From an uncultured Anaerolineales bacterium (GTDB taxonomy: Bacteria; Chloroflexota; Anaerolineae; Anaerolineales; E44-bin32): a stretch of 64,000 nucleotides of DNA. The stretch is from assembly GCA_965195195.1 (NCBI GenBank), contig CBDAFF010000029.1, positions 6,553 through 70,552 of the forward strand, read 5' to 3'. Below the pieces are notes generated by a model. The model was not told the origin of the DNA. It ran no database searches and saw only the letters and a program-made list of their open reading frames with translations. The position numbers were made by a program, and so were the translations under genes. Below are positions 33,566-61,016 of this stretch, piece by piece (position 1 is the stretch's first letter; each line of letters begins with the position of its first letter).

Positions 33566-33645
33566 AATTAGATAAGCTGACTCACTTACCAGTTGATGTA
33601 GAATACTAGCATCTGCATCGATTCCCGCATCTGGAGGTCCCCTGT

Positions 33646-35461: not shown

Positions 35462-35611
35462 ATTGTCGTAACTAAAAGGGCTGCACAAATCAGGGGCGCG
35501 TTTGTACGTACCAACGACCCTTTCATTTTTCCGCCGAGTTTTTACCTTTGTTATTAATGGCTACACGCATATCAAAGGGCAATTTAGATCGAACGTCTCG
35601 GCATGTCTCGT

Positions 35612-36199: not shown

Positions 36200-36295
36200 T
36201 TGCACACATCCTGTAAACGCTATTTGCAAAACCTGACCGTCACTCGAATGAAACTCGGGCGATCCAAACTTCGATATAAAACTCAGCGGTGACGA

Positions 36296-36832: not shown

Positions 36833-36876
36833 TGCCTTATCTCCTCAGGATGTAAATGGAATCATCTCCTTTGGGA

Positions 36877-37476
36877 CTAAAGATTGATTCTTGGAAGAAA
36901 TCTCCCAGTATGCTTCATATAGTGTATATACTTATCTCCGAATTTTTCAACCATGATTTTTTCCTCGCCATCTACCCTCAAGGCGATGAACAACCCGAAA
37001 AACACAACTGGTATAACAGCCAATACCCAGTTTGAAGCGAGTAAGCCCCCGCCAATATAATTCATCAAATAAGCCGTGTAGATTGGGTGACGGATAAAGC
37101 GATAAGGGCCGCTCTCCACAAGCACTTGCTCCTCTTTCAGGACAACGAAAGAGTGAAAGCTCTTTCCCAGGTGATGATGAGCGAGCCAGAGCAGCGAAAT
37201 GCCGGCAACTAAGAGGACCACTCCAAAGTACCTCAACCAGGTCGGGAAATGAATTAAATACGCCCACGAAAAGGTGCCCGGGAAGAAGATGTATTCAGCG
37301 CCGAAGATGAGTGTTACAAGTGCAGCGATGCTCCCCGGTATCAAGCGTGGACCACTATCTCGCATTTCGCTGCGACGCAAATCACCCCTTACCTTCGATT
37401 GGTAATAGATCCTGATCGCAAACATGGCGACGCCGCTCAGGATGAACAACGTTCTGAAGATGATCTCTTGATCCAT
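36877..37476 (-). CDS. ICMT/PEMT-like membrane methyltransferase family protein (paralog 2)
   Basis: LVESGPYRFIRHPIYTAYLMNYIGGG ... EEKIMVEKFGDKYIHYMK. Confidence 0.75.
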   Translation of the reverse strand: MDQEIIFRTLFILSGVAMFAIRIYYQSKVRGDLRRSEMRDSGPRLIPGSIAALVTLIFGAEYIFFPGTFSWAYLIHFPTWLRYFGVVLLVAGISLLWLAHHHLGKSFHSFVVLKEEQVLVESGPYRFIRHPIYTAYLMNYIGGGLLASNWVLAVIPVVFFGLFIALRVDGEEKIMVEKFGDKYIHYMKHTGRFLPRINL

Positions 37477-37584
37477 GGTTCAAAATCTCCAGGGCTGGAA
37501 GGGTTCTTCTACGCAGAGGCTATCGTCAAGTGACCTGGATTAATCCACCAAAATTCAGTGCGAAACGTGGTTTCAATCCACTCA

Positions 37585-38055
37585 TTACGAGTAGATCAGC
37601 CGGAAGCGCTCGCAAACTACGGGCATATCACCCGTGGGTTCTTTACCGATGGATTTACACTCCTCGGCAAAGAAAGCCCAATGGACCTCTCGCCAATAAT
37701 CCAGGCTGCGATCCCCCTCACCCTCCTCATAGGCATGCTTTTCACCTACCGAATTAAAGGCAATTACTTCGACGTCCGTCGTTTCAATAATGCACATTGG
37801 ATCACCCCGGCCATCCAGGATGATGCTAATATCGCCGACCTCGGGATAGGGTTCCCCTTCCGCATGGTAAGACCAGGCAAGTGAAGCCGTGGCAATCTTC
37901 ACGCCCCGCCTGACAAGATCCCCTAAGTTGTCAGCCATTTCAGATGTGCGCCCGAATGCCCAGGCTTCGTACTCCAAACCCTGTGTTGACCGCTCAGGTT
38001 TTAGAGAATCAAGATACGATCGCCAGTAATCCCTTACAGCTGGTGCTTCACCCAT
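37585..38055 (-). CDS. ASCH-domain protein
   Basis: EYEAWAFG...MADNLGDLVRRGVKIATASL...VIAFNSVGEKHAYEEGEGDRSLDYWREVH fits the ASCH pattern (from memory). Confidence 0.6.
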   Translation of the reverse strand: MGEAPAVRDYWRSYLDSLKPERSTQGLEYEAWAFGRTSEMADNLGDLVRRGVKIATASLAWSYHAEGEPYPEVGDISIILDGRGDPMCIIETTDVEVIAFNSVGEKHAYEEGEGDRSLDYWREVHWAFFAEECKSIGKEPTGDMPVVCERFRLIYS

Positions 38056-38072
38056 CGTTCTTCCCTCTCCCT

Positions 38073-38597
38073 TTACACACCAGCCCTACCGAACGTCAAA
38101 CGGTAGAGAATGTAATCGGCCGTGTTACCCATGAGGTTTCCCATACGGATCATGCGCAGAACAACATGGATGGCAGCCGCCTTGTCCTCACCATAGAAAA
38201 CTATGAGTTCTTGAACATTTTCAAGGGCAGGCTGTGCATCACTCTCAGCCCAGTAGCGAGCATAGATCATGGCCGGAACTTCTTCTTCGGGAGTATCTGT
38301 GGGTATCTGACCCGCTAGTAACTCGGCGAGTTCAGTGTCTGTAATACCTTCTTTAAGCGCTTCACTCGCATGGAATGTCCGACAATACCGGCACCCATTC
38401 ACTTCTGTAACAACCAGCATCAGCCGTTCACGAAAGGCAGGTGAGAGCAGCTCTCTCATCGCCCTCCGTATAATGGGCCGACGCTGGATGATGTAGCGAA
38501 AGTCTTCCCAGGCTTCACCCAGGCCTTGGTAGGTTCGCTTTTGAAACTTGTTCTTCAATGGATTTACCTCTTCACGCTTACCATATACCAGGCACAA
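38073..38597 (-). CDS. Carboxymuconolactone decarboxylase / AhpD-like family protein
   Basis: VTEVNGCRYCRTFHA (CxxC-type AhpD motif). Start is uncertain: a TTG at 38558 after GAAGAGG would remove the overlap with the upstream gene. Confidence 0.65.
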   Translation of the reverse strand: MCLVYGKREEVNPLKNKFQKRTYQGLGEAWEDFRYIIQRRPIIRRAMRELLSPAFRERLMLVVTEVNGCRYCRTFHASEALKEGITDTELAELLAGQIPTDTPEEEVPAMIYARYWAESDAQPALENVQELIVFYGEDKAAAIHVVLRMIRMGNLMGNTADYILYRLTFGRAGV

Positions 38598-39288
38598 GAC
38601 GGTACCGTGTTTGCTGCGCGAAATCCGTATATCCCGGGAGTTCCTCCATCAGCATTTTGTCCTCGTTCTTCGTGCGAATGACCAGAAATCTCAGCGCGAT
38701 TCCCGCCGGGATGAGCGCCCAAAATGAGCCGAGCATCAAGGGCATGGCAATGGAACTAACGACCCCTCCCGCATACGCCGGGTGCCGAACGAGGCGATAA
38801 GGACCTCCAGTAATGACTGATTGATCGCGATCCTCCTGGATTCGGGCAACGGATGAGAAAAACGCGTTGGTTACCATCGCCCATGTTCCAAGAACGAAGC
38901 CAAGGACGACGCCCAGCAATGCAATCCCTTGGGTTAGGAAAGACAGATCTGGTGACCAGCCGAAGCGGTCATCGAGACCAGCGATCGTCCAGATCACCAA
39001 CGGCCCGAGCAATCCAACGATCACAACCATGAGGCGATCCCCCACGGCGGCATCGTCAGCTTGCATAGCACGGCCACGTTCAACCAGTGTTTCCGGATTT
39101 GAACGGAGAACAATGAGCCTGCTGACAAGCGTGAAACCGATATGGATGCCGATATAAATCCAGGCCATGGTCCAATCAAGACGGCCCGCAGCGATGAACA
39201 AGACAAACGGTAAAAGAATAACGTATATCAAGAAGCGGACCACCATCCTCCAACCAATCCCCTTGATTCCTTCCGATTGTTTTTCCAT
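38578..39288 (-). CDS. ICMT/PEMT-like membrane methyltransferase family protein (paralog 3)
   Basis: VITGGPYRLVRHPAYAGGVVSSIAMPLMLGS ... NEDKMLMEELPGYTDF. Confidence 0.75.
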   Translation of the reverse strand: MEKQSEGIKGIGWRMVVRFLIYVILLPFVLFIAAGRLDWTMAWIYIGIHIGFTLVSRLIVLRSNPETLVERGRAMQADDAAVGDRLMVVIVGLLGPLVIWTIAGLDDRFGWSPDLSFLTQGIALLGVVLGFVLGTWAMVTNAFFSSVARIQEDRDQSVITGGPYRLVRHPAYAGGVVSSIAMPLMLGSFWALIPAGIALRFLVIRTKNEDKMLMEELPGYTDFAQQTRYRLVPGIW

Positions 39289-39329
39289 TCGCTCTCTCCA
39301 AATTGAAAATTGTTACCAACTCGTCAACT

Positions 39330-39791
39330 CTATCCGGCAATACCCTCAAGATCCGATGTGCATTGCGGACAGCGGATTGCTTCAATCGGTATATCCATGA
39401 AACAGAATGGGCACTCCTTGGTCGTGGGCTCGGATGGAGGTTCTTCCTCGGCTCTTTGGATTTTGTTTACACTACGGATGAGAAGAAAAACGGCAAATGC
39501 AACGATTACGAAAGTGATGATGGTGTTGATAAAAAGCCCATAATTAAGTGTAACAGCTCCTGCTAACTGCGCTTCCGCGACTGAGAGATAGGGGCCGGCA
39601 ACATCACCCTCGCGCAGGATGATGAATAGATTTGAGAAGTCGACATCCCCAAGTAGAAGACCAATCGGGGGCATGATGACATCATCAACAAGGGAGCTGA
39701 CAACAGACCCGAAAGAAGCCCCAAGAATGAGGCCTACCGCCATGTCGAGCACATTTCCACGCATCGCAAATTCCTTAAATTCTTTGATCAT
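39330..39791 (-). CDS. mscL: Large-conductance mechanosensitive channel with C-terminal zinc-ribbon extension
   Basis: [28 protein letters not shown] is canonical MscL. The extra tail is [24 protein letters not shown]. Confidence 0.85.
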
Positions 39792-39811
39792 CTTCAGCTC
39801 CCGGCAATCAT

Positions 39812-40483
39812 TTACTGGTGTTTCCTTTGCGCTGTCTGAATATAGTCCTCGAGCTCCATTTCCGATAATGAATTCACCGTCAGATCGGCTTTCGGCATCG
39901 GCAAATGCCGCGTCACGTCATTGGGCACAGCCACACAGAAAATACCGGCTCGCTTGACAGCCTCTACACCGTGAAGTGAATCCTCAAAAGCAATCGCTTG
40001 ATGGGGTTGGATCCCCATGTCACCGAGCACAGCCATGTATAGTTCAGGAGATGGCTTGGTATTTAATACATCGTCGGCGCAGCGAATACTTTCGAAATTG
40101 GTGTGCAAACTCAATCTAGTGAGATGCCCGAGGACCCACTTCCTGTCTGAGCTTGAAGCGACACCAAGACGCAAGTTTCGGTCTTTTGCCTCGGCGATGA
40201 GATCAAGAACGCCAGGCATGACTTCTTCTGATTTTAGAAGTTCCAATTCCCGTTGTGTACGGCGGGCACGAATCGCCGCGCGATACACTGACTCACCGAT
40301 GTGTGACTCGATAATTTCGTACGCCTCTGCAGGGTCCGTTGAACTTCCAAGAAGGCTCGCCCATTCCACTGGAGAAACTGTTATGCCATATTCGACGAAA
40401 ATCTCCTCCCACGAACGAAACATCGCCGTCTCGGTATCGAGGATCAATCCATCGAAGTCAAAAATCAGTGCCTTTATGGTCAT
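39812..40483 (-). CDS. HAD-superfamily hydrolase (beta-phosphoglucomutase-like subfamily IA)
   Basis: [16 protein letters not shown] (DxD motif I), [21 protein letters not shown]. Confidence 0.8.
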
Positions 40484-40515: not shown

Positions 40516-42351
40516 GAGTCCCCTGAAAAAAGGTTCGTAAAAATTCGCGAAATTTAGCCGATGGGGGTAGGATAACCGAAATGTCCTATACGGGGAACTC
40601 GGCATGTATAAAAGAAACCAAAACCACCTTCAACTGCCTCTCATGAGTCAATTGGATGCGCTGTCTAACAAGCGACGCAAAGGATTGGAAGAATCCTGGG
40701 CTGGAACCTTCTATAGAGAATTCTTCAGTCGTTTGAACGAAGACATCTTTGCTGATTTGTATTCCGACAAACCTTCCCGGCCGAATATCCCGGTGAATGT
40801 GCTGGCCGGGTTTGAAGTGCTCAAGGCGGGGTTTGGGTATAGCGATGAGGAGATGTATGCGGCCTATAACTACGACATGCAGATACGGTATGCATTTGGC
40901 TACCGCAATCTGGGAGAAGGGGAATTCGAACTGCGGACGATCTACAACTTCCGGCGGCGGCTCAGTGAATACATGCAAGAGAAGGGCATCAACCTGATCG
41001 AGAAAGCCTTTGAGCAGGTCAGCGACGAACAGATAGAAGCCTTTCAGTTGAAGACCGGCAAGCTCAGGGTGGACAGCACACAGATCGCCAGCAATATCCG
41101 CGAGATGAGCCGTCTGCAGCTGCTGGTGGAGGTCTTGCAGCGGGCGCAGCGCATGCTCAGCGAAGAGGATCAAAAGCACTACAAGAACGACTTTGAACCC
41201 TACCTGCAGGGGACCTCGGGCCAATATGTCTATCGCATCAAGGGTGGAGAGGCGGCGGACCATCTGCAGCCAATCGGTGAGCTGATGTACCGGCTGGTGG
41301 AGGAGCTGCGGGATGACTATGATCAGGAGCCCGGCTACCAGATGCTGGTGCGTGTCTTCCAGGAGCATTTCATCCTTGATGAAGACAAGTTGCGCTCCAA
41401 ACAGGGGGATGAACTGAGCGCCGGAAGCTTGCAATCGCCGGACGACCGGGAAGCGACCTATCGCAGAAAACGAGCTGAAGATCACCGTGGCTATGTGGCC
41501 AATCTGACCGAAACCTGCGATCCCGAAAATAAGTTCCAACTGATCAACAAGGTACAGGTAGAGCCCAACAACGTCGAAGACACCGATATGCTGGAGGAGG
41601 CGCTGCCGGACCTGAAAGAGCGCACCGACGTGAAGCAAATCTACACCGACGGTGGATACGGGAGCCCGGATGTGGACGAGGCCATGCGGGAAGCGGGGGT
41701 GGAGCAGATCCAGACCGCTATCCGGGGACGGAAGCCTGCGGAAGAGAAGCTGGGATTAGAGGATTTCGATTGGGAGACCGATGATGATGGCAGGCCCCAG
41801 GATGTCGCTTGTCCCCACGGCCAGAGGGTTGCCGTGCAGCAAAGGCGGAAAGAATATCGCTATCTGGCTTACTTTGATGCTGTAGTTTGCGACAATTGTC
41901 CATTCGCCGATCAGTGTCCGACAAAGCCGCTCAAGCGCAGAGCGGATAGAGTTTTGCGTTTCTTACAGCGAGAAGTGAACCTGACCCTGCGGCGCAAACG
42001 AAGTGCTGATATGCATGCCAGTGGGAAGAACCTGCGTGCTGCGGCCGAGTCAACGATGCGCTCGGTGAAACATCCCTTCAGGAACGGGAAACTTCCTGTA
42101 CGGGGAAAGCCCCGTGTGAGCATGATGGTCATTGCTTCTGCGGCAATGACCAATATCCGGCGTATTCATGAGTATCAGGAGAAGCTGAGAGAAGAGATAA
42201 GAAAAGCAGGAGCCGTTCAGAAACAAATGGAAGAGGCGATCACGAATGCTTTTGTTTCTTTCCTGGGTTTCCTTCAGCGTGGACTATTCAGAAAGATTGA
42301 TTCGAAAATGGCAGTCGTGAGGCTCCCAATTTGAGTTGTTTCAGAGGACTC
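40516..42351 (+). mobile_element. Intact insertion sequence, IS5/IS1182-like (1836 bp)
   Basis: Left end GAGTCCCCTGAAAAAA versus reverse complement of right end GAGTCCTCTGAAACAA (14/16). Flanked by direct repeat ATTAGAA at 40509-40515 and 42352-42358. Single transposase ORF inside. Confidence 0.85.
40604..42334 (+). CDS. IS5/IS1182-family DDE transposase (576 aa)
   Basis: N-terminal InsH-like region (RPNIPVNVLAGFEVLKAGFGYSDEEM), C-terminal Cys cluster (CPHG...CDNCPFADQCPTKP). Family call is from memory. Confidence 0.8.
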   Translation: MYKRNQNHLQLPLMSQLDALSNKRRKGLEESWAGTFYREFFSRLNEDIFADLYSDKPSRPNIPVNVLAGFEVLKAGFGYSDEEMYAAYNYDMQIRYAFGYRNLGEGEFELRTIYNFRRRLSEYMQEKGINLIEKAFEQVSDEQIEAFQLKTGKLRVDSTQIASNIREMSRLQLLVEVLQRAQRMLSEEDQKHYKNDFEPYLQGTSGQYVYRIKGGEAADHLQPIGELMYRLVEELRDDYDQEPGYQMLVRVFQEHFILDEDKLRSKQGDELSAGSLQSPDDREATYRRKRAEDHRGYVANLTETCDPENKFQLINKVQVEPNNVEDTDMLEEALPDLKERTDVKQIYTDGGYGSPDVDEAMREAGVEQIQTAIRGRKPAEEKLGLEDFDWETDDDGRPQDVACPHGQRVAVQQRRKEYRYLAYFDAVVCDNCPFADQCPTKPLKRRADRVLRFLQREVNLTLRRKRSADMHASGKNLRAAAESTMRSVKHPFRNGKLPVRGKPRVSMMVIASAAMTNIRRIHEYQEKLREEIRKAGAVQKQMEEAITNAFVSFLGFLQRGLFRKIDSKMAVVRLPI

Positions 42352-46319: not shown

Positions 46320-46886
46320 CTAGAAGAATAAGAAATAGCGGGGGACCTGCTCTAAATATTGCCTATACTTATCACCATACTGTTGCAAACATGATCGTTC
46401 TTCTGCAATCACGCGAATGTGGCTCATGAAGGCACCGATGGCTATCAGTATTACCGCCACCCAAGATCCTATGGCAATGCTGATCCCTAAACATGATAAA
46501 AGAATGGATACTTGCTGAGGATTCCTCGAGATCCGGTAGAGTCCTTTGGTAACGGGCTGATCGAGCGGAGTATCTTTGAAGTTCAATAGCGAGAGCACAA
46601 ATCCAAACAATCCGAGTAAATAAATCGCGCCCCCAAGAACAAACACAACATGCCCGGTATTCAAGGGCGTCAGGATCACTAACGCAAACCATGAAAGTAT
46701 GAAGAGCTTCCCAATTGCGCTAAGGGTTTTTTGTCTTTTACTCCATGCGGATCGATCATAGAGCCTGGCGACAACACTTTTTGGGAAACTAAGCAGCAGA
46801 ATACCAAATACGACATAGAAAAAGACCAAAAGCAACCAGCCGTTTAGCAGACCTAGATTAAATTCCGGAGTGAGCTCCATCATCAA
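46320..46886 (-). CDS. ICMT/DUF1295-like membrane methyltransferase family protein (paralog 4)
   Basis: VTKGLYRISRNPQQVSILLSCLGISIAIGS ... EERSCLQQYGDKYRQYLEQVP. Confidence 0.65.
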   Translation of the reverse strand: MMMELTPEFNLGLLNGWLLLVFFYVVFGILLLSFPKSVVARLYDRSAWSKRQKTLSAIGKLFILSWFALVILTPLNTGHVVFVLGGAIYLLGLFGFVLSLLNFKDTPLDQPVTKGLYRISRNPQQVSILLSCLGISIAIGSWVAVILIAIGAFMSHIRVIAEERSCLQQYGDKYRQYLEQVPRYFLFF

Positions 46887-48991: not shown

Positions 48992-50200
48992 TTAGAGAAC
49001 GCCAACTTCTTTTCCCACTTGTTCGAAGATATCCAAAGCTCTTTCGATCTGCTCTGGCTCATGGCTGGCAGTCACAGTCGTGCGCAAACGTGCCAATCCC
49101 TCCGGAACGGCCGGCGAGATGACGGGAAGGACGAATAGATCTCGTTTATGACACTCACGTGTCATTTCAAATGCCTTCTCATCCGTTCCACATAACAAGG
49201 GCACGACTGCCGTCTCGCTTTTCATCGTATCAAAACCCCGCTCTTTGAGACCATTGATGAAGAGTTTTGTGTTTTCACGTAGCTGTTTCACCCGCCACGG
49301 TTCGTCGAGAATGACACGGAAAGATTCCATTGCCGCCGCAGCCTGCGCCGGCGGCAACGCCGCGGAGAAGATATAGGCTCGTGATTGATGGCGCAAATAT
49401 TTGATCAGGTCAGCGCTTCCGGCGATGTACCCGCCGACGCTGGGAATAGTCTTGCTTAACGTCCCCATCTTAATGTCTATCGCCCCCTCCAGGTTGTAAT
49501 ACTCCTCAATACCCCTGCCGGTCTCGCCCAGCACTCCAAGCGAATGCGCCTCATCGATCATCAGCCACGCATCGTTTTCTTTGCAAAGCTCAGCTACTGT
49601 TGGCAGGTCGATGATATCTCCATCCATGCTGAATACAGCGTCGCAGATCACCAGCTTGGCCGCCTGGGATGGTGCATCTTTCAGCCGCGCCGCCAAGTCA
49701 TCCATATCATTATGACGAAAACGAATAAATTTCGATCCTGACATCAAACATCCATCGACGATACTAGCATGGTTCAATTTATCGCTGAAAACACAATCGT
49801 GCCTGCCCACTAACGATGATATTGCCGTTAGATTGGTAACATAGCCGGACGTAAAAGAGATCGCGTCGTCCGTGCCCTTGAATTCCGCTATGGTCGCCTC
49901 CATCTCAGTATGGAGAGTCAATGTGCCCGCCAGGGTCCTGACACCATGGGTTCCTGTGCCAAAGTCATCAACCGCCTTGCGAGCGGCTGCATCGATCCGG
50001 GGATGCCCAATAAGTCCAAGATAACTGTATGAAGCGAACATACTCATCTCATGCCCATCAACTAAAACCGTTGCTGTACCATTCAGCTTACTGATGGGTA
50101 TGTTGTAATAGTAGTAATTCAATTGCTGAAGACCATTGACGCGCTCACACATGGCTCGTATTCGCCCTTCAATTGGATCCGTATCACGTTTGGGAACCAT
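48992..50200 (-). CDS. Alpha-oxoamine synthase family PLP enzyme (BioF/Kbl/SPT-like)
   Basis: SYSYLGL, DEAHSLGVLGETGRG, GTLSKTIPSVGGY (PLP lysine). Substrate not assignable from sequence. Confidence 0.85.
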   Translation of the reverse strand: MVPKRDTDPIEGRIRAMCERVNGLQQLNYYYYNIPISKLNGTATVLVDGHEMSMFASYSYLGLIGHPRIDAAARKAVDDFGTGTHGVRTLAGTLTLHTEMEATIAEFKGTDDAISFTSGYVTNLTAISSLVGRHDCVFSDKLNHASIVDGCLMSGSKFIRFRHNDMDDLAARLKDAPSQAAKLVICDAVFSMDGDIIDLPTVAELCKENDAWLMIDEAHSLGVLGETGRGIEEYYNLEGAIDIKMGTLSKTIPSVGGYIAGSADLIKYLRHQSRAYIFSAALPPAQAAAAMESFRVILDEPWRVKQLRENTKLFINGLKERGFDTMKSETAVVPLLCGTDEKAFEMTRECHKRDLFVLPVISPAVPEGLARLRTTVTASHEPEQIERALDIFEQVGKEVGVL

Positions 50201-50348
50201 GTTTAATCACCTTTCTCCGAGAATATTGCCTCCGCGCAATGACCCTCTATAAGCTGGGTTCTGCGAATGGCATTGACAGAGTTTACCCCACTTTTTCATT
50301 TTCAATTTAATCACTAACCGCGAATAATTCGCGCATCGTTGCCGCTCG

Positions 50349-50780
50349 TCATAAAGAGTTCTTTCCGTAGTCTGCCGTTGACCACCTCGCTGGTCTCATC
50401 CGGATCAGGAGCTCTTCGTCTCCTGATGTCTTGTCCACATACGCATTGCCTCTTTCTTGGCCAAGATAGCGACGGGCAATAGGTCCTAATTCTCTTTCGT
50501 GATCAGCATCCTCAATGGAGACTATGGGTCCTTCAACACTGACGTACTTATACGGAGTAGATTCATCTTGCACACATAGCGTGAATCTCCCCTCTTGCGT
50601 AAGAAGCTTTACTTTCTTTGCATTCTTGTTCGTGATGAATACGATATCACCCCCCGGTTCATAGGAGTACCATACAGGCACCAACACCGGTGCACGATCA
50701 GGAGCAGATATTCCGAGAATTCCTACATGAAGAGCCGCGAGGAAGGCTTCCCTTTCCGCGTCAGTCATGGTGAATGTCAT
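50349..50780 (-). CDS. Pyridoxamine 5'-phosphate oxidase-family (PPOX-fold) protein
   Basis: MTFTMTDAEREAFLAALHVGILGIS...PVLVPVWYSYEPGGDIVFIT. The track start (50816) is TTG. Confidence 0.65.
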   Translation of the reverse strand: MTFTMTDAEREAFLAALHVGILGISAPDRAPVLVPVWYSYEPGGDIVFITNKNAKKVKLLTQEGRFTLCVQDESTPYKYVSVEGPIVSIEDADHERELGPIARRYLGQERGNAYVDKTSGDEELLIRMRPARWSTADYGKNSL

Positions 50781-50875
50781 AATTACCTTCCCGCCACGTT
50801 TGTTGTTATCTGCCAATGGACCTATTGGATACCTTGCATCAGCGTTGATCCTCTTACCTAGCCGTGTATTATCCT

Positions 50876-51334
50876 TCAGTTTCTAGGCATCAACAAATAT
50901 ACGGCTATTACCATCACAAATAAACCACTTACACGCTGGATCGTCAATGGGATAGGCTCAATACTGCCGATTCCACGTGTATCAACGATAATGGACACGA
51001 TGAGTTGGCCAAGGATGATCGTTGCCAGTCCAGCAGCAACTCCAGCACGTTGAAGCGAAAACGAAAGCCCGGTGATGATCAATATCCCCAACGTGCCGGA
51101 TACGGCAACCATTACGACCGCAGTGGTCGGTATCTTCCATGCGCCTGACCCTTGTAGAAAGAAAAGAACGAGAACAGCAACACCAGCGATTACTCCACCA
51201 AGAAAGTTGGTAAGCAAACCAGTTCGTATGTCACCTATTATTCCGCCTACTCGACTGGTCAGTGTAGCTTGGATACCAATCGCCACTCCTGTCGCCAAAG
51301 CAGCAAAAGCCCCAATGATGATTGCAGTCCTCAA
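50876..51334 (-). CDS. DMT-superfamily small membrane transporter (YdcZ/DUF606-like)
   Basis: 152 aa, 5 TM, GIQATLTSRVGG... TTG start after GGGAGG. Confidence 0.55.
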   Translation of the reverse strand: MRTAIIIGAFAALATGVAIGIQATLTSRVGGIIGDIRTGLLTNFLGGVIAGVAVLVLFFLQGSGAWKIPTTAVVMVAVSGTLGILIITGLSFSLQRAGVAAGLATIILGQLIVSIIVDTRGIGSIEPIPLTIQRVSGLFVMVIAVYLLMPRN

Positions 51335-51387
51335 TGGTGCACCTCCCTTATCTCGATGGTTTGAATAATAGCTGAATTTAACATCAA

Positions 51388-51451
51388 GGCAACGAATTCA
51401 ATAGCTCGGTTATTCTTCTTTTCGCTTCGTGGAGGGCAATTCTGGTTAGAC
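51388..51451 (-). repeat. attC-like imperfect inverted repeat (candidate)
   Basis: Minus strand: GTCTAAC (stop TAA of the DDAH-like gene embedded) CA GAATT ... AATTC GTTGCC. AAC/GTT plus a 5-bp box pair, with a 2-nt bulge on the GTCTAAC-side arm. 64 bp. Confidence 0.35.
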
Positions 51452-52219
51452 GCTAATATCGAATATCAAACTACAACAAGTCAATGCGCCTTCAGCTTTC
51501 TGGAGCTCGGAGACATCAACGACTCTTACCCCGATCCCCTTACTCTCCAACCGGCGACGGGTCAGCGGAAAACTCTGTGGATACGCCAATTCATTACCAA
51601 CGAGTAAAGCGTTGGCTGCAAAAGGTTCACCGGGATCAATGTCAATAAATTCTATCGGGCCACCGAAACAGTTTACGTCAACCCAAGATCTGTTGATAAG
51701 CAGGGTCTGCTCACCCACGAGGGAAACCGCCGACTTTAAGTGCAAACAGCCTTCCACTTTAACAACTTCAACATCATATCCATAAGGAGCAACGATCTCC
51801 ATCAATTGTTTGATGCCAGGTATATTCGAGCGAACTGAATTACCAACGTACAAGGTCCTGCCAATCCGTAAGACATCTCCACCGTCAAGAGTGCCTGGAT
51901 CGGTTATTTGAACTATCGACCGGTATTCCTTTAAGACTTCAGCAACGCTTTGTGTTTCATTTCTCCGCAGGACTGCACCTGGTCGGGTAATAAGCGCCGC
52001 GTCATCCAATACAACGGCTGTATCTTCCACAAACACTGAATCGGGTAGCTTGGGGTCTTCTGGTAACCTTCTGACTTTGCATCCTAAGTCGATTAATAAA
52101 TTCTCATATTGAGCATGCTGAGATCGGGCGCGGTTAACATCAATTTCCTGGCGGGAAAGATGAGTCAGCTCACACTGTCCAATACTGGGGCTTACACCCC
52201 GCGTAACCGCAATTCGCAA
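51446..52219 (-). CDS. Dimethylarginine dimethylaminohydrolase / amidinotransferase-fold enzyme
   Basis: DSVFVEDTAVV, GGDVLRIG, C-terminal EGALTCCSLIF (catalytic Cys context). TTG start after AGGAAGG. Confidence 0.7.
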   Translation of the reverse strand: MRIAVTRGVSPSIGQCELTHLSRQEIDVNRARSQHAQYENLLIDLGCKVRRLPEDPKLPDSVFVEDTAVVLDDAALITRPGAVLRRNETQSVAEVLKEYRSIVQITDPGTLDGGDVLRIGRTLYVGNSVRSNIPGIKQLMEIVAPYGYDVEVVKVEGCLHLKSAVSLVGEQTLLINRSWVDVNCFGGPIEFIDIDPGEPFAANALLVGNELAYPQSFPLTRRRLESKGIGVRVVDVSELQKAEGALTCCSLIFDISV

Positions 52220-52245
52220 AGTTTTACCTTCCTGTCGCTATATGT

Positions 52246-52360
52246 ACCTAACACCTCAAGATGCATGGTCTCCGAAGCTAAGGTTCGGCCTTGGTCCTTA
52301 CGTGAAAAACACATCGCCATAACTAGTTGGCGCTTGAAGCGCAGCTGCTTTACGTTAGGG
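52246..52360 (-). repeat. attC-like terminal inverted boxes (weak candidate)
   Basis: Minus strand CCCTAAC (52354-52360) ... GTTAGGT (52246-52252), with 6 of 7 positions complementary and 101 nt apart. The interior has only local hairpins (CCGAA/TTCGG, GCGCTT/AAGCGC). Confidence 0.25.
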
Positions 52361-52377
52361 GCAATCCCAGAGTATCG

Positions 52378-52797
52378 CTAGACATTCTCAGCCTTCTGCA
52401 TCTTCATTGTCTGCCACCCACAATACGTGAACAACAAACTCGGTGCCGCGAAGATCAGGAAGAAGGGACCTCGCGGGAGGGTTCCTGAAAACAGATAATC
52501 CAGCAGGTAAAAAGCTGCCACACCACAGATCGTAAGCAACCCTCCATACAATTCCCACCTCCAGCCCAACAACAACCCCAACCACACTGCAAAGAATGCC
52601 ATCATCATTCCGATTTCACGGATCGTCAGGGTGAGAATTGGTTCAAATCCATCAGCAAGTGCTTCTCCGACGAAAATAAGTAGGATCAATGCAGCCATAA
52701 CTCCAGCCGAGATCCTCGCGATCCAACGAACGACGCTCACTGTTTTGTTTCCGTTCGTATTAGTTAAGTCGCCTCCTGAGAGCGGATATTCGTCCAC
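52378..52797 (-). CDS. Small 4-TM membrane protein (paralog of 54042..54479)
   Basis: RWIARISAG and GWRWELYGG are shared with RRIARIWSF and AWRWEKLGG in the paralog. GTG start 3 nt after the upstream stop. Confidence 0.5.
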   Translation of the reverse strand: MDEYPLSGGDLTNTNGNKTVSVVRWIARISAGVMAALILLIFVGEALADGFEPILTLTIREIGMMMAFFAVWLGLLLGWRWELYGGLLTICGVAAFYLLDYLFSGTLPRGPFFLIFAAPSLLFTYCGWQTMKMQKAENV

Positions 52798-52800
52798 GAT

Positions 52801-53250
52801 TTACTCCTCCTTTATCTCTACCCTCACTAGCAAACGTCCTGAGTTATCGTATATATCAACGTCATTGATCCCGAGGTAGAGAATGCCGCTCTCACCGATG
52901 GAATGATGGTATCGTTCACCGACCAGAAAGGGTTCATGATCACCGATGCGACCAATTAGAGCCGCATGGGAAACCCCCTCCATAACATTACATCTGCAGC
53001 GAGGATCTCCACCTGACCCGATAGCATCGAAACCTTCACCTGACCATGGCGACCATCTGCCAGACACGTAAGTAATCGTAAGAAGATCTCCAGCTTCGAC
53101 TTTGATATGCGTGTTATTCCATCCTTCCTTCGCTTCGACATTAATTATTTCAGCATCCTGCGAGCCGCCTAGATCGTATGAAAACGAACAAGCTAAAGTC
53201 ATCAGAAATAGCAATAAAATTGGGGGGAGTAATGCGAAGTTTCTTTTCAT
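52801..53250 (-). CDS. Predicted lipoprotein, beta-rich, function unknown (possibly lectin-like)
   Basis: Lipobox MTLACSF. GDLLTITYVSGRWSPWSG...ALIGRIGDHEPFLVG...LYLGINDVDIYDNSG pattern. Confidence 0.45.
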   Translation of the reverse strand: MKRNFALLPPILLLFLMTLACSFSYDLGGSQDAEIINVEAKEGWNNTHIKVEAGDLLTITYVSGRWSPWSGEGFDAIGSGGDPRCRCNVMEGVSHAALIGRIGDHEPFLVGERYHHSIGESGILYLGINDVDIYDNSGRLLVRVEIKEE

Positions 53251-53400
53251 GGTTCCCTACTTAATAGATGAGTATTGGCACCCCCGTCTTTGAACTTCGC
53301 TAAGCGAAGCGGAGCAGCCAAGCGGATACCTGCCTGCGAACGACGTGGAGTGGGTCATGAAGCATTTTGTAAGACATAGTCGTTATGGCTTAAGCCCATC

Positions 53401-53880
53401 CTAAATCCACTTTCTTACTTTCGATTTATACTGCCGCCATTCTTCTTGAAATGTCTCACTAAGCATCTCTTCTTCGACTCTTATGAAGATAATATCCATT
53501 AGGATAGCAAACATTAGAACAACAACATATGGCGAGATAGAGCCAAGCAAGAGAGAAATTCCGAAAAGGACCAACACAAAACCCAAATACATTGGGTGTC
53601 TACTATATCGATAAACCCCCTCAGTTAATAATGTCGCTGACTCCTCATAGGGTTTAACGGTGGTTTGATATTGTTTGAAATCACGATCAGCGATGAGGTT
53701 GAGCACCACCCCAATCAAAAGAGGGAATAATCCCATCAGATTCAAGGGATTCCTAACAATAGTGGCAACCGGAAAGGTGAAATGAAGTAGAAGGATGAGG
53801 ATAATTGCCACCAGTAAGTAAGTCGGAGGAAATACTTTCTTCAGCATGGTTCTTACCCTTGTATTGCCAGAGATCGGCAT
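53401..53880 (-). CDS. ICMT/PEMT-like membrane methyltransferase family protein (paralog 5)
   Basis: LLTEGVYRYSRHPMYLGFVLVLFGISLLLGS ... EEEMLSETFQEEWRQYK. An alternative start is MLKKVFPP at 53847. Confidence 0.7.
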   Translation of the reverse strand: MPISGNTRVRTMLKKVFPPTYLLVAIILILLLHFTFPVATIVRNPLNLMGLFPLLIGVVLNLIADRDFKQYQTTVKPYEESATLLTEGVYRYSRHPMYLGFVLVLFGISLLLGSISPYVVVLMFAILMDIIFIRVEEEMLSETFQEEWRQYKSKVRKWI

Positions 53881-53927
53881 AGTGGTTTGAGTTTATCCGC
53901 CCCGTTAATACCTTAGCTTACTATTTA

Positions 53928-54047
53928 AGATTCTCATTCCAGGGCTATCGCTACCAAATCGCGCAATCCACGGGTGCCTGTGCTGAGCTTGTCGAAGCAT
54001 CGGCTCCCCTAAGACCCCGATTGGGACAGGGCCACGAATGGTTAGAC
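53928..54047 (-). repeat. attC-like imperfect inverted repeat, copy of the 54646-54753 element (candidate, 3' box degenerate)
   Basis: Minus strand starts GTCTAAC with the stop TAA of the 145-aa gene embedded. CATTC-GTGGC...CCCAATCGGGG pairs collinearly with CGCGATTTGG...GCCCTGGAATG. There is no GTT at the distal end (AGAATCT). Confidence 0.35.
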
Positions 54048-54479
54048 ACCGTTCTGAAAAGTCGGCATCTTTCTCGATCTCCGCCAAGCCACCAAGAACA
54101 GTATTCCAGGAATAGCAACAACCACCAACATAAGATAAGGGATAGCTGAGCGAGGGAAATCTTGTGTGATCGGTCTTTGAATAAGAAGCAACAAAAGCGT
54201 TGCTAACTGGAAAACAAGAGCAATCGCTCCCCCCAATTTCTCCCAACGCCAGGCGATGGCTAATCCCAGAACACTCAGAAACATCAAGATTGGGGGGAGT
54301 GCTTCTACGAGAGGATAGCCCTCTACCGCGTACGGGTCAGCTTTTCCGATGGTCACCCAGTTCCATGCATAGCCAGTAAGCATCATCAGAGAGTAAACAA
54401 TGATGGGAAAGGACCAAATACGTGCAATCCGGCGAATCCTTTTCGTTACGCGATCGTCGGTGTCACTAACGTTAGTCAT
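54042..54479 (-). CDS. Small 4-TM membrane protein (paralog of 52378..52797)
   Basis: 145 aa. AAGGAGGATAAATA precedes the ATG. Motifs shared with the paralog as listed for it. Confidence 0.5.
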   Translation of the reverse strand: MTNVSDTDDRVTKRIRRIARIWSFPIIVYSLMMLTGYAWNWVTIGKADPYAVEGYPLVEALPPILMFLSVLGLAIAWRWEKLGGAIALVFQLATLLLLLIQRPITQDFPRSAIPYLMLVVVAIPGILFLVAWRRSRKMPTFQNGV

Positions 54480-54645
54480 TATTTATCCTCCTTGTTTAAT
54501 ATAACGCCCAACGGCTTTGAGCTACGTAGCCGCCTGTTTTATGGGGGGACGAAGACCCCCCGCTTTATAGAGGGCGAAGTCCCACGTTCTGTGTGGGTAG
54601 CGGCCGTGGTATCCCCGACGGCTACCGTTTATCCCCTCTCACATC

Positions 54646-54753
54646 ATACAACTTTGCTATCAAATCGCGCAATATCCTCGGGCTCCTGCTGAGCCTGTCG
54701 AAGCATCGGTTGACGAAGATCCCAGCGGTTTTCCAGGGCAGTGTTGGTTATGT
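54646..54753 (-). repeat. attC-like imperfect inverted repeat (candidate, 108 bp)
   Basis: Minus strand ACATAAC ... GTTGTAT. Collinear arm pairing (ACTGC/TTTGC-type, AAACCGC/GCGATTT, GATCTTCG/CGAGGATAT) and a central GGCTC-AGCAG-GAGCC hairpin. Starts 26 nt after the racemase stop. Confidence 0.4.
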
Positions 54754-54779
54754 AGCCAGATTTAAAAGAGTGACAACTG

Positions 54780-55472
54780 TCACTTTATCGCTTCTAAAAC
54801 AGCCTCTTCAGCATGTATAGAAGTCGTATCAAAGAGCGGGATGTCTGTATGGTGTTGTTGCACAAGCATCACAATTTCTGTACACCCCTCGATAATGCCT
54901 TCGGCCCCCCGGTCTCGCAAATCCTCAATTATCCTCAGAAACTCATCACGAGATTCATCTTGCACTTGCCCTACACAAAGTTCGTCATAGATAACGCGAT
55001 GTACGATTTCGCGGTCGGATTTGGGAGGTATAAGAACATCTAATTCATACTTCTCAACCAAACGACCTTTATAAAAATCTTCTTCCATCGTAAATCTTGT
55101 ACCTAACAAGCCGATGGTTTTCATTCCTGCTGCCTTAATTCGTTTAGCCGTTGTATCTGCAAGATGTAGAATTGGGATACTAATCGCATCCTGGACTTGA
55201 GGCGCAACCTTATGCATCGTATTTGTACAAATAAGAAGAAAATCTGCTCCGGCAGCCTCTACTTGTTTGGCAGCCTGAGTTAGAGCCTGTCCTGCACCCG
55301 CCCAATCACCGTTATGCTGCATTTCTTCAATTTCCTGAAAATCAACGCTGACCATTGCAATACGGGCTGAATGCAACCCTCCTAGTTGGGTTTTTATTCC
55401 CTCATTGATGAGACGATAGTAAAGCTCTGTTGATTCCCAACTCATTCCGCCCAGCAAGCCAATAGTTTTCAT
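54780..55472 (-). CDS. Aspartate/glutamate racemase family protein
   Basis: MKTIGLLGGMSWESTELYY, LLICTNTMH, GIIEGCTE (two catalytic Cys contexts). The track start is TTG 55481. Confidence 0.85.
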   Translation of the reverse strand: MKTIGLLGGMSWESTELYYRLINEGIKTQLGGLHSARIAMVSVDFQEIEEMQHNGDWAGAGQALTQAAKQVEAAGADFLLICTNTMHKVAPQVQDAISIPILHLADTTAKRIKAAGMKTIGLLGTRFTMEEDFYKGRLVEKYELDVLIPPKSDREIVHRVIYDELCVGQVQDESRDEFLRIIEDLRDRGAEGIIEGCTEIVMLVQQHHTDIPLFDTTSIHAEEAVLEAIK

Positions 55473-55541
55473 TTTGATCAAATCCTCTACTGAATTTGCC
55501 GAATTCCGCTAATTCTTGCTTCGCCTCATACCAATCTTAGC

Positions 55542-55614
55542 CGGTAACGTTGCGCTTCAGCGGCGTGGAGCGAGTTTGCGAGCGGAGCGTCCGACTGAAA
55601 GTGCCTTGTTATTG
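55542..55614 (-). repeat. attC-like imperfect inverted repeat (best candidate, 73 bp)
   Basis: Minus strand CAATAAC-AAGGCACTTTCAGTCGGACG ... CGCCGCTGAAGCGCAAC-GTTACCG. About 13 Watson-Crick pairs. Three single-base bulges, all on the AAC-side arm. Begins 8 nt after the cupin stop. Confidence 0.45.
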
Positions 55615-55622
55615 GTGTGGCG

Positions 55623-55952
55623 CTAATCGACAATAAAGAGCTTGGCCCCCACTGCTGTTGAGGAGCGATGAGGCTCTGCATTATCAGCAACTTGATAACT
55701 CATACCAGACTTGAGAATAAACTTGTGACCATCTTCTAGCGCTGTGTGCAATTCTCCCTCCAGGCAGAGTAAAATATGTCCTTTACTGCACCAATGATCT
55801 GCAAGATAGCTTGGAGAATACTCAACCATCCGGACTCGAATATCTCCAAATTTCTGTGTTTTCCAATAGGCAACACCGGTATCACCTTTGTGTTCAGTTC
55901 GTTCGATTTCTGACCAATTCGTAATACCGAAAGGCATATCAGTTAAATGCAT
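55623..55952 (-). CDS. Cupin-fold protein (DHCW-motif-cupin-like)
   Basis: 109 aa. YLADHWCSKGHILLCLEGEL core. AAGGAG before the ATG. Confidence 0.65.
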   Translation of the reverse strand: MHLTDMPFGITNWSEIERTEHKGDTGVAYWKTQKFGDIRVRMVEYSPSYLADHWCSKGHILLCLEGELHTALEDGHKFILKSGMSYQVADNAEPHRSSTAVGAKLFIVD

Positions 55953-55970
55953 GTGTTTTTCTCCTTAGAC

Positions 55971-56028
55971 ACATAACGGATGAGCTCACTTGCCCTGAGT
56001 AACACTGAGCCCTTCTCCTCCGTTCCGC
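55971..56028 (-). repeat. attC-like imperfect inverted repeat at the GC-rich/AT-rich boundary (candidate, 58 bp)
   Basis: Minus strand GCGGAAC GGAGGAG aaggg CTCA ... TGAG CTCATCC GTTATGT. 7-bp box with 1 mismatch, 5-nt bulge on the AAC-side arm, then a 4-bp stem. The GTTATGT box lies 18 nt before the cupin ATG. Confidence 0.4.
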
Positions 56029-56073
56029 TCAGGAAAGCCGTAGCGAATGGGCGTATCGAAGAGCTATTTAAGA

Positions 56074-57081
56074 TCAGGGCACCGTGAAATCGGTGGTTTT
56101 TTCAACACATTGCCCTCCCCCACCATCCTGGGTGCACAGCTTGAGCGTCAAGCGCGCACTATGCCCACTCGGCACAGGTGAGCCGATGGATGCAGCAATA
56201 TACCGGGTCTGCCCGGGATCCATCGCGCTCGCCCCTGGCGGGCAATCGCTGCTGGATGCCAAGAAAGGCAGCGGGTTGTTCGCGGGTCCATATAAAGTTG
56301 TGCTGGCGGTCAGGTCTTGAATGAATATCCGCGCCCACTCGAAGGCGAAATCACCAGTGTTTTTCACGGTGAAAGTTGCGTAATGTGGTAAACAAAGGCC
56401 GGTGTTCGTGAAACTCACCGTGAAGTCTGGCTCAGGCGGTCCCAGCACTTCGATCTCCACCCAAAAAGCCACGCTTCCCGTTGCCCCGATTCCAAAGATC
56501 ACCCCCTGTGGATTGCGGAGTTTAAAGTAGCCCTTGTACCCCCCTTCGCTTCCCGGCGCTGTAAGCTGCACGGAGACATCCACATTCTGATTCGTTCCGA
56601 CCGTTCCACTGGTCAACTGGACAGCAGCCGGCGCTCCCATCTGATCCCCGTGATCGAAAACAAGGTCGTACCCTGAAGTCCAGGTGCACGATCCAGTGTT
56701 TTTCAAGCGCCATGTTTTTGTGAACACATCGCCCGGCGAATAATCAGCGCCATCCGGAACAGTCACATCCGTAACAAAGACAGCGCGATCGCAGGGGATC
56801 TCCGTTGCCGTTGGCAAAGGTGTGAAGGTCGGCTTCGGCGTGGGAGAAGGTTCTTCAGTGGGCTCTTGCACTGGCGTTTGTGTCGGTTCTTCACCCCCTG
56901 GTCCCGGCGGCGGCCCTTCCTCACCTTCCTGCAAAGCCCTCTTCGTCTCAACAGCATTGATCGTCGCTTGAACCGCATCTTCAGGAGCAACGGCTCCAGA
57001 ACCTGGCAAATTACAGGCAAGGCTGCTAATCACCAAAGCGGCGAGTGGTAATAAGCTGTATAGAATCCTGGTCGGTTTCAT
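56074..57081 (-). CDS. Secreted lipoprotein with NBR1-like Ig-fold domains
   Basis: ATG 57081 after GGAGGA. Lipobox ISSLACN. Pro/Thr/Glu linker. FVTDVTVPDGADYSPGDVFTKTWRLKNTGSCTW is the NBR1-like pattern. Confidence 0.6.
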   Translation of the reverse strand: MKPTRILYSLLPLAALVISSLACNLPGSGAVAPEDAVQATINAVETKRALQEGEEGPPPGPGGEEPTQTPVQEPTEEPSPTPKPTFTPLPTATEIPCDRAVFVTDVTVPDGADYSPGDVFTKTWRLKNTGSCTWTSGYDLVFDHGDQMGAPAAVQLTSGTVGTNQNVDVSVQLTAPGSEGGYKGYFKLRNPQGVIFGIGATGSVAFWVEIEVLGPPEPDFTVSFTNTGLCLPHYATFTVKNTGDFAFEWARIFIQDLTASTTLYGPANNPLPFLASSSDCPPGASAMDPGQTRYIAASIGSPVPSGHSARLTLKLCTQDGGGGQCVEKTTDFTVP

Positions 57082-57519
57082 CGTCAATCCTCCGATCTCG
57101 TGAGAGTGTCCCTTTTGGGGATCTTCATCTACATAACGATGTTGGCTCCCTTTTGTGACACCAATTTGAGCTTTGCGTCAACAAAAACACAGATTCAGTA
57201 TATTCACCTTGCATAAAAGTGTCACTCGACAAAAGTACTACGCTTTCTACCTGACGACAACTCCGAATCTTTAACCCCTCCTTAGAAAATGTCTGCATCT
57301 GCCGTGCCCTGTCCATTTAATCATACGAAACACCCGACCTTGAATGACCGACCTCATCCCTCACACCCCCCGGGTTGACAACGAGGGTGCTTCGCACCCT
57401 TCTGCTATGAGCCCGGAGGTTCAGCTCCGGGCTCACCCTTGAGGGGAAGAAAAACCGAGCACACCACATCTTCGATTGCGCTTCCTGGTAATTACTTCTT
57501 TCGCTTGCAGGGATAAGTG

Positions 57520-60318: not shown

Positions 60319-61016
60319 GTTGATAATCCTCTTTCGTTTAGGATGACTGTATATATGGAACGCGCCGCGTCCACCAACTTCTCGGTCACGGCGCACAAAG
60401 AAAGATGATAACCGATTTTCTAATAACTGTGAACGGGATTCATTAAATTCGAGCCTCCTCTTATTATTCAATCGTAAGGGCCGACCTGTGTGTTGGTCCG
60501 CCGCCCTCAAGCAACCAGCAATCTCCCATGACCATTGCTAAATGCTCCTTAGAGACGTCCCTTTGAAACGCAAAACCGAATCGATCGTTATCAGGGGGGC
60601 TCTGCCCAATCCGCTCCGGATTGTGTTTCAATGGGAAATAGAGTCCGAGATAGAGATATTGTATCCTTCTCGGATTTGGATGGTTGGTTTGAGCTGAGAA
60701 CTTGATGTTTAATCCGGTGGATGTGGGGGAGTGAAGTCCCCCACCGTCCCCTCGCGTGCATCCCCGAAGCAGAGCGGAGGGGGCATTGGGGGATTTAGGG
60801 GGAAGAAATAAATCATCACCTCTTCAATAGTCTATCTATTCATTCAAACGCATTGACATCAAGGCGCAGGCTGCATCTGCGACCGGACCCAACGCTTCCT
60901 GTCTCCATAAAAACTAACAACCCATCTCCAGAACACATACGGATTCACCCTAACGATCACCTGAACGCGCAGAGACCGGGGCGTCTCTACAATTTCGAAA
61001 ATGAACCCACGCTCCT

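Follow-up and report, generated by a model that had tools for sequence, protein, structure and literature searches.

The 64,000-nucleotide stretch analysed here (the window; part of the 142.6-kb contig CBDAFF010000029.1, assembly GCA_965195195.1, of an uncultured Anaerolineales bacterium) carries at 50312–56028 a tract of small genes that an earlier note, made from the letters, had taken for an integron-like array of gene cassettes. Our analysis gives a narrower picture. With a probability of about 0.65, the upper third of the tract (approximately 54000–56030) is a reduced piece of an integron cassette array that lacks an integrase and in which one attC site is left, and the rest of the tract consists of conserved accessory genes. 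The integron-like reading holds for three genes, encoding a cupin, an Asp/Glu racemase and the DUF7670 protein that we call DUF7670b: the site behind the cupin gene (site b) passes an attC covariance model of our own making, and an attC array is found in relatives. An array of nine cassettes, each with its attC, it is not.

Site b and the arrays of related genomes

Our covariance models R1 and R2 were trained on attC sites from plasmid integron arrays (class 1 arrays, a VCR array from Vibrio and a plasmid integron from Aliivibrio). Thirteen real sites were laid out in a common block pattern of R''(7 nucleotides, nt), spacer (5), 3 bp, an extrahelical base, 3 bp, an optional extra base, 3 bp, an extrahelical A, and stem...spacer (5–6) and R'(7), and all 13 carry a (C/G)GAC motif. 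Alignment of full-length sites with MAFFT misplaced the right arms and was abandoned in favour of a seed model (R1) from equal-length trimmed sites, to which further sites were realigned. R1 recovers real attC sites, including those outside the seed, at 24–55 bits; R2 comprises 26 real sites realigned to R1 and was searched with filters off, and R3 is a lineage-specific model made from matches in relatives. On both strands of the window, R2 gives site b as its single significant match (Table 1), the runner-up reaching 11.6 bits; within the tract, the next match has 8.7 bits and is on the wrong strand. Site b is also the top window match with R1 and R3, and R3 adds no sites in the window to those already found. 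In 96 kb of other Anaerolineae DNA the best R2 match scores 12.9 bits, which is also the top score in approximately 385 kb searched alike outside the small-gene arrays and a further locus, L110.

Site b is an attC site that is still near its functional form. It reads CAATAAC AAGGCA CTT[T]CAG[T]CGG[A]CG ... CG CCG CTG AAG CGCAAC GTTACCG, with a loop of 22 nt. R'' and R' close an imperfect hairpin and pair in the bottom-strand fold, where their pairing is extended by G–T wobbles; extrahelical bases occur on the R''–L'' arm only, and the central spacer is unpaired. The arm shows the 3-1-3-1-3-1 pattern of triplets and extrahelical bases seen in attC-VIM4, attC-aacA4, attC-arr3 and the VCRs, and both the block pattern and the CGGAC motif agree with the 13 real sites. 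The bottom strand folds better than the top (−12.5 versus −7.1 kcal/mol).

The cupin gene is the one open reading frame (ORF) of the tract that is still trailed by a model-grade attC. Copies with 87–92% protein identity occur in four to five distinct genomic contexts; in three of these (L093/L108, L102 and L097) the copy retains 20–35 nt homologous to the left arm of site b, and in L105 the homology stops at the stop codon. The boundaries of the cupin unit across contexts are approximate only, and are not used here as strong evidence. Orthologs of site b follow the cupin gene in L108 (13.9 bits) and L093, and the cupin–racemase block (55979 to 54760) is 88% identical to L093 7974–9189. The cupin itself is found at 75–92% identity across Achromobacter, Janthinobacterium, Noviherbaspirillum, Desulfosarcina, Syntrophales, Zixibacteria and Chloroflexota, and is either extremely conserved or widely spread between phyla. 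In Achromobacter its gene has an ordinary chromosomal context, and the attC model finds no site in that locus.

Two contigs from relatives, reached via protein homologs of the cupin, DUF7670b and the ICMT-type methyltransferase of the tract, hold a much longer run. One (JGI, 63 kb) comprises the loci L093 and L115 and the other (GCA_964445415.1, 64.6 kb) the loci L108 and L114. Both have the same aminotransferase flank as the window and, ahead of it, approximately 35 kb with roughly 45 co-oriented small genes. The proximal order in both, ICMT–GNAT–lipoprotein–DUF7670a–(reversed pair)–DDAH–YdcZ–PNPOx, is the order of the window. The cupin–racemase pair is found 14 genes farther from the aminotransferase, with DUF7670b another six to eight genes upstream of that pair; these genes are common to the window, L093 and L108, but their order differs. 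Cupin, racemase and DUF7670b, whose orthologs lie in these two arrays, belong to the attC-bearing half.

The far half of the relatives' run is an attC cluster with proteobacterial-type attC architecture. R2 gives eight matches in L108 (13.9–34.0 bits), all on the gene-sense strand and within 16 kb; six follow a co-oriented ORF, starting 7–63 nt past its stop codon, and at least six are each no more than 4 kb from the next. The best, at 7749–7875 (34 bits, E ~2e-6), reads GCCCAAC AAGCG GTT G CAG CCG A CCGCC ... GTTAGAC. All 12 matches that were pooled for one alignment (A6) are gene-sense. The array sites share a left arm, TAACCAATCGCTGCCCCAG, and a right arm, AGCTCAAAACCGTTAGGC; with up to four mismatches, the latter motif occurs 11 times in L108 and five times in L093, always gene-sense, against a background of five per 1.27 Mb, and in L108 it ends 14–79 nt ahead of a gene start.

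Other repeated features accompany these arrays. PEMT/ICMT-type membrane methyltransferases and GNAT acetyltransferases recur many times in and around them (46320–46886 and 53401–53880 in the window; L093, L108 and L114), with at least three ICMT-type genes per array in the relatives; DUF7670 has two to three copies. Two spacers of L093 (2850–3040 and 5697–5930) have in common a repeat of about 130 nt (CGCGAGGCGCGATA...GTAAGAATATTGGGATGAA...GAGGCTGTTAGGC). The repeat terminates in what looks like a canonical R' box and may represent a second, longer attC family that goes unscored by the proteobacterial model.

Table 1. Features of the tract and its flanks (window coordinates)
Feature	Coordinates	Strand	Remarks
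Class I/II aminotransferase	48992–50200	−	Conserved anchor gene, fixed end of tract
PNPOx	50349–50816	−	Pfam
YdcZ/DMT	50876–51334	−	Pfam
ADI/DDAH-like	51446–52219	−	Pfam
DUF7670a	52378–52797	−	Pfam DUF7670
Lipoprotein-like ORF	52801–53250	−	149 aa; without Pfam family
PEMT/ICMT	53401–53880	−	Pfam
Accessory segment	50349–53880	−	ICMT, lipoprotein, DUF7670a, DDAH-like, YdcZ, PNPOx
Spacer d	53881–54047	−	R'' GTCTAAC 54041–54047 overlapping stop; D1 in left arm 53950–54003; putative former R' ATTAACG 53903–53909
DUF7670b	54042–54479	−	145 aa; Pfam DUF7670
Spacer c	54480–54779	−	R''-like ACATAAC 54739–54745; D1 copy 54656–54709; right-arm motif AGCTCAAAGCCGTTGGGC 54506–54523
Asp/Glu racemase	54780–55481	−	233 aa; Pfam
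attC site b	55542–55614	−	R2 24.6 bits, E ~9e-4; 73 nt; starts 8 nt past cupin stop codon
Cupin	55623–55952	−	109 aa; weak Pfam match; source name 'DHCW motif cupin fold protein'
Element a	55971–56028	−	58-nt hairpin GCGGAAC...GAGCTCATCC GTTATGT; R' GTTATGT 55971–55977
Ig-like lipoprotein	56074–57087		Other flank of tract
Pyruvate phosphate dikinase gene			Beyond the Ig-like lipoprotein flank

Probable relic elements and accessory genes in the rest of the tract

Judged by homology, element a, the right end of spacer c and spacer d appear to be mutated or truncated relics of the attC sites found in the far half of the relatives' run. Element a is probably an attC right arm together with the cupin cassette's 5' boundary. 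In L093, L108 and L097, homology of the cupin unit begins at the CGTTA of this element's R' box (55979), the sequence upstream being unrelated, and the element's right arm resembles that of the attC match in L110, GCTGAGCTCATCCGTTGGAT; it has no attC-model match, no unpaired central spacer and a folding z-score of −1.2 to −1.4. On the other side of the cupin gene, the racemase gene remains its neighbour in L093 and L108. Spacer c is a mosaic of left arm, loop-like piece and right-arm motif, homologous to several attC-like elements of L108, and looks like a composite attC relic. It holds the window's only match to the lineage right-arm motif, which contains an R' box GTTGGGC (54506–54512) and ends 26 nt ahead of the DUF7670b ATG.

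In L108 and L093 an attC match follows the DUF7670b ortholog (10433–10523, 16.9 bits, and 2186–2276, 20.4 bits, respectively). Spacer d aligns with these two sites, with a repeat, D1, inserted in the left arm and GTT changed to ATT, and is best described as a putative decayed attC; the change accounts for the remark in the earlier note that the element at 53928–54047 lacks the GTT, which it does. D1 has the core CTTCGACA(A/G)GCTCAGCA and is present at both window positions given in Table 1 and in L002, L003, L004 and L005; we have seen it only within small-gene arrays of this clade. We take its core to resemble the widespread 'FDKLR/LRQAQ' palindromic repeat, which is translated in many hypothetical proteins.

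The boxes and inverted repeats that had suggested nine cassettes fare unevenly. GTCTAAC does occur with the stop codon TAA embedded at 51445–51451 and 54041–54047, and CAATAAC, CCATAAC and CCCTAAC lie just 3' of ORFs. ACATAAC at 55971–55977, proposed as a further starting box, is not one on the gene-sense strand: it stands on the plus strand, where it is element a's GTTATGT box read in reverse complement, a separate gene-sense ACATAAC following the racemase gene at 54739–54745. Of three hairpins put forward as the best copies, with bulges on the AAC-side arm, a and b fold in this way and 51388–51451 is unfolded (−1.8 kcal/mol). Folding finds no closing hairpin for spacers c, d, e, g and j, and elements a, c, d, e, g, h and j have no match to R1, R2 or R3, bar one of 9.4 bits in h (E 4.6). 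Whole-spacer and per-element folding sets a and b apart from the other elements, without being proof. These two hairpins were considered as intrinsic terminators and rejected, as neither has a 3' T-run and the terminator scan skips both.

What exceeds chance is the placement of the boxes. Folding z-scores of the window candidates range from −1.7 to +0.4, versus −2.5 to −8.7 for two real attC sites, and a brute-force scan of both strands of the window finds approximately 45 AAC...GTT hairpins of comparable energy, most of them within ORFs. Given these numbers, hairpins by themselves are not above chance, and we dropped them as a criterion. A TAAC within 45 nt of the stop codon is present in six of the nine window spacers and, taking array spacers together, in 21 of 56 versus 18 of 100 control tandem spacers (P 0.007); GTTRRRY ahead of the next start is present in 9 of 56 versus 2 of 100 (P 0.002). 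Both P values are optimistic, since orthologous spacers are counted more than once and are not independent. Two caveats entered beforehand are confirmed: the spacer at 50781–50875 is without boxes, and an AAC/GTT hairpin occurs elsewhere, at 60559–60635. The latter belongs to a separate repeat, a sequence of about 80 nt (TTCGGTTTTACGTTTCAAAGGGATGTCTCTTAGGAG...) that is present twice, inverted, at 19370–19543 and 60520–60913, with 84–92% identity over the best stretches and no Rfam match. This strong hairpin is formed by one copy, which sits immediately ahead of the pyruvate phosphate dikinase gene and has an AAGGAG-like box at its end; the repeat could be a shared leader or regulatory element.

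The segment from ICMT to PNPOx is conserved accessory synteny, not demonstrably cassette-borne. The adjoining aminotransferase has 82–96% protein identity in six related Anaerolineales genomes, which places the window in the Anaerolineales, and the order DUF7670b–ICMT–lipoprotein–DUF7670a–DDAH–YdcZ–PNPOx–aminotransferase recurs in species-level relatives with single-gene differences. The proximal gene order of the window is seen ahead of the same aminotransferase in L002–L005, L114 and L115; ICMT is absent in L002, YdcZ is absent in L007, and an extra GNAT gene is present in L004, L114 and L115. Gene order conserved as core synteny had been named in advance as an observation that would speak against a cassette array; it is what we find for ICMT–PNPOx, whose synteny beside the aminotransferase is kept in all relatives. 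Neither R2 nor R3 finds a site, and no lineage arm motif is present, in this segment or in the orthologous segments of relatives, and the same is true of the aminotransferase-proximal 11 kb of the long arrays. The indels of the segment are ordinary deletions, as in L003, where a 5' stub (~40 nt) remains of a GNAT gene that L004 carries intact. Nevertheless, the segment may be very old cassette material.

Within it, spacer g (52240–52373) is a 133-nt block bordered by the 8-nt direct repeats TAGCGATA and TAGCGACA. The window shares it with L003 and L005, and L002 and L004 lack the entire block; its boxes, CCCTAAC and GTTAGGT, are complementary at six of seven positions, with no attC fold and no model match. 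At its position L007, L114 and L115 carry a reversed ORF/ORF pair, the common sequence being the DDAH start region only. We rejected a MITE (miniature inverted-repeat transposable element) and an ORF-less cassette as explanations, given the missing terminal inverted repeats and the reversed ORFs of the relatives; spacer g may be a deletion remnant.

As for the tract as a whole, ORF calling and Pfam bear out nine small, unrelated ORFs that are all on the minus strand (50349–55952), and TTG 52219, TTG 51334 and GTG 52797 are the first starts of their ORFs, as had been described. Co-orientation of small genes alone is not diagnostic in this genome, since the window has another long stretch of small ORFs, most of them on the minus strand, at 24712–40483, with neither an attC-model match nor a lineage arm motif. 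The tract is, as proposed, somewhat AT-richer than its surroundings (G+C 0.44–0.49 versus 0.52–0.57 directly outside), with the segment 46001–47000 as low as the tract. The tract has no more promoter-like matches than chance predicts (9 observed versus 9.4 expected). No tRNA or tmRNA that could serve as an anchor was found in the window, and a scan of it with Rfam at gathering thresholds gave no match; to our knowledge, Rfam has no attC family.

Possible history and competing explanations

The comparison with relatives suggests the following history. The lineage carries a long run of co-oriented small accessory genes upstream of the conserved aminotransferase, about 35 kb in two relatives, whose far half forms an array of integron-type cassettes with no integrase close by and whose proximal half lacks attC features. 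The window would hold a strongly reduced version, in which cupin, racemase and DUF7670b have been joined straight to ICMT–PNPOx. In the past, an integron integrase would have captured and reordered cassettes by acting on attC hairpins folded from the bottom strand and cleaving them at G|TT. At present the tract would be inert, because no integrase is nearby and most partner sites have decayed, and it would be inherited vertically and altered by ordinary deletion, its genes presumably being expressed by read-through or from promoters of their own.

Several observations weigh against this account, the first being that no integrase is found anywhere in the lineage within the contig parts read. 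With IntI1 as query (100% identical to plasmid intI1), tblastn reaches no lower than E 0.23 in the window and 81 related loci, so that the remark that no intI is visible extends to all of these; Pfam scans of ten longer ORFs find no Phage_integrase domain, and the records of called genes flanking or within the relatives' arrays list none. Further, the candidates of the window and of L093 fold no significantly better than shuffled sequence (z −1.7 to +1.1). R2 is a home-made model of 26 gamma- and beta-proteobacterial sites, with a shortened calibration and rough E-values, and is not the attC model of IntegronFinder; most of its matches in relatives are weak (14–21 bits, E 0.005–0.6). The ortholog of site b in L093 has lost its AAC, the L093 match after DUF7670b has a TGAC/GTCA box and not TAAC/GTTA, and not every 5' limit of the cupin unit falls exactly at G|TT, the shared sequence in L105 running 14 nt further upstream. 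Finally, the match at L002 785–863 (20 bits) overlaps a tandem repeat and an apparent transposase-gene start and may be spurious.

The L002 region (740–1000) is of some interest in itself: after a HigB/HigA toxin–antitoxin pair it has three tandem units of about 25 nt (GACATAGGTAACA.AAATTCTAAG) that run, as judged by eye, into the apparent first ~30 codons of a transposase gene (MPWKGVTVSEQRQRFIEDYL...), which we take to be IS481-like. The sole mobile-element gene in the window is a DDE transposase ORF 8 kb away from the tract (576 aa, 40604–42334, plus strand; domains DDE_Tnp_1_6, DDE_Tnp_1 and DUF772), also the one such gene met in the Pfam scans. It sits in a locally GC-rich kilobase (0.567) and is overlapped by a 350-aa antisense ORF.

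An extension of this history can be entertained tentatively. The relatives' run may be an integrase-less array of about 35 kb that is fixed by the aminotransferase and inherited across species, with attC sites that grade from near-intact at the far end to none at the fixed end, and that is occasionally shuffled in trans by an integrase encoded elsewhere. It is the differing order and content of units between species that suggests such action in trans. If true, the locus would offer a natural time series of attC decay together with a still-shuffled array, in a phylum whose integron biology is essentially unstudied.

A different and rather unlikely possibility is that all nine genes of the tract belong to an old cassette array, in which ICMT–PNPOx, being oldest and farthest from a lost attI, has attC sites decayed past recognition. 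The integron model does lead one to expect sites that are more decayed the farther they lie from the insertion end, and the tract genes are small, unrelated and co-oriented, one of them being paralogous, as a DUF7670 gene, to a true cassette gene. The stops of ICMT, DUF7670a and DDAH have TAAC-type boxes behind them, DDAH and YdcZ have GTTRRRY-type boxes ahead (GTTAGGT and GTTAAAT) with a near-match, GTTAGTG, ahead of the aminotransferase, and single genes (ICMT, YdcZ, GNAT) are present or absent among relatives. However, ICMT–PNPOx matches neither the proteobacterial nor the lineage model, and the orthologous segment is without matches or arm motifs even in the better-preserved relatives. The boxes are not kept in orthologous spacers either, CCATAAC becoming CCATAGT or TTATAGC in L003 and L005; the limits of indels are off GTT, L003 retaining the first ~40 nt of the deleted GNAT gene; and spacer g occupies the site of the reversed ORF/ORF pair of L007, L114 and L115.

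It is highly unlikely that the elements belong to a lineage-specific family of intergenic repeats, of the repetitive extragenic palindrome (REP), MITE or terminator kind, that resemble attC within an ordinary variable accessory island without integron history. Such a family would sit well with the presence of several repeat families in the spacers (D1 and the ~130-nt repeat in two L093 spacers), with unexceptional folding energies, with the lack of a visible integrase and with the two attC-like matches that adjoin isolated genes in another context, L110. Yet a model built from proteobacterial sites only gives 34 bits to L108 7749–7875, with the full layout of R'', spacer, triplets, extrahelical bases and R', and 24.6 bits to site b; a and b lack the T-run and are missed by the terminator scan; and the strict strand bias, together with sites that extend from just past a stop codon almost to the following ribosome-binding site, is the pattern of cassettes. 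As for the isolated matches, lone attC sites are a known product of integrase activity (bioRxiv 10.1101/2022.09.11.507474).

Least probable of all is that cupin and site b are a single cassette, inserted alone at a non-att site (attG) and unconnected to any array here, as one might suppose from the one model-grade attC in the window, from cupin copies at 87–92% protein identity in several unrelated contexts and from the core genes upstream (encoding an Ig-like lipoprotein and pyruvate phosphate dikinase): in the long L093 and L108 arrays, too, cupin and racemase are neighbours and have the same element between them, with 88% identity of the block to L093; DUF7670b and its apparently decayed attC derive from the same arrays; and the tract ends at the same aminotransferase as they do, so that descent by deletion and rearrangement is simpler than a lone insertion.

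The reduced-array reading provides a new example of integron-derived cassettes surviving without an integrase, in uncultured Anaerolineales, and illustrates that what looks by eye like a nine-cassette array can contain only one site acceptable to a model. The comparison with relatives points to several modes of attC decay, namely GTT to ATT change, loss of AAC, insertion of a repeat in an arm and fusion of arms, and this picture should be useful in judging attC clusters that have no integron integrase (CALIN) and single attC sites likewise without one (SALIN) called in metagenome-assembled genomes. The kind of element is already known, and general knowledge of integrons is unchanged.

Comparison with known integron elements

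Integrons are already known in Chloroflexi (PMC4889954). The window has no intI adjacent to the tract, as a complete integron would have, its product being a tyrosine recombinase with an IntI-specific insertion. Such an integron would also have an attI site and a Pc promoter beside intI; attI sites are specific to their integrase and show little conservation. A CALIN is defined as a cluster of at least two attC sites without an integron integrase (Cury et al. 2016, PMC4889954) and a SALIN as a single attC site without one (Loot et al., bioRxiv 10.1101/2022.09.11.507474). By our own model, L108 contains two or more same-strand attC sites within 4 kb and the window has one match with E below 1; on the basis of this one model-grade site the window is a SALIN, and the locus in its relatives is a CALIN. 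The locus shares with CALINs co-oriented small unrelated ORFs, attC sites on one strand (L108) and the lack of a nearby integrase, and the window tract is homologous to part of such an array. It differs in that the window has one model-significant site, the others being putative relics seen by homology, and in that two thirds of the interval first proposed lie outside the attC-bearing part. With SALINs the window shares one coding sequence (cupin) that has one recognisable attC behind it, and the lack of an integrase or a further intact att site in the vicinity. In contrast to them, its neighbours carry what appear to be attC relics and the unit sits inside arrays in relatives, which makes the last intact site of a decaying array a better description than a lone attG insertion.

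The sedentary chromosomal integron arrays, such as the Vibrio VCR array, resemble the present locus in having a fixed position, vertical inheritance across species, lineage-specific attC arms and a toxin–antitoxin pair, here the HigB/HigA pair in the lineage's array (L002). Xanthomonas arrays with inactivated intI are comparable sedentary arrays. The present locus differs in that neither intI nor attI is seen, the sites are far more degenerate than VCRs, and the host is a member of the Chloroflexota known from metagenomes only. At the level of single sites, site b and L108 7749–7875 share with class 1 attC sites (attC-aadA1, attC-cmlA5 and attC-gcuC) the block layout R''(nnnYAAC), spacer, three 3-bp blocks with an extrahelical base after the first and an extrahelical A after the third, stem ... 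GTTRRRY and the (C/G)GAC motif, and site b differs from them in having spacers of 6 nt (AAGGCA and CGCAAC) instead of 5, three single-base bulges, and pairing of R'' with R' at four to five of seven positions.

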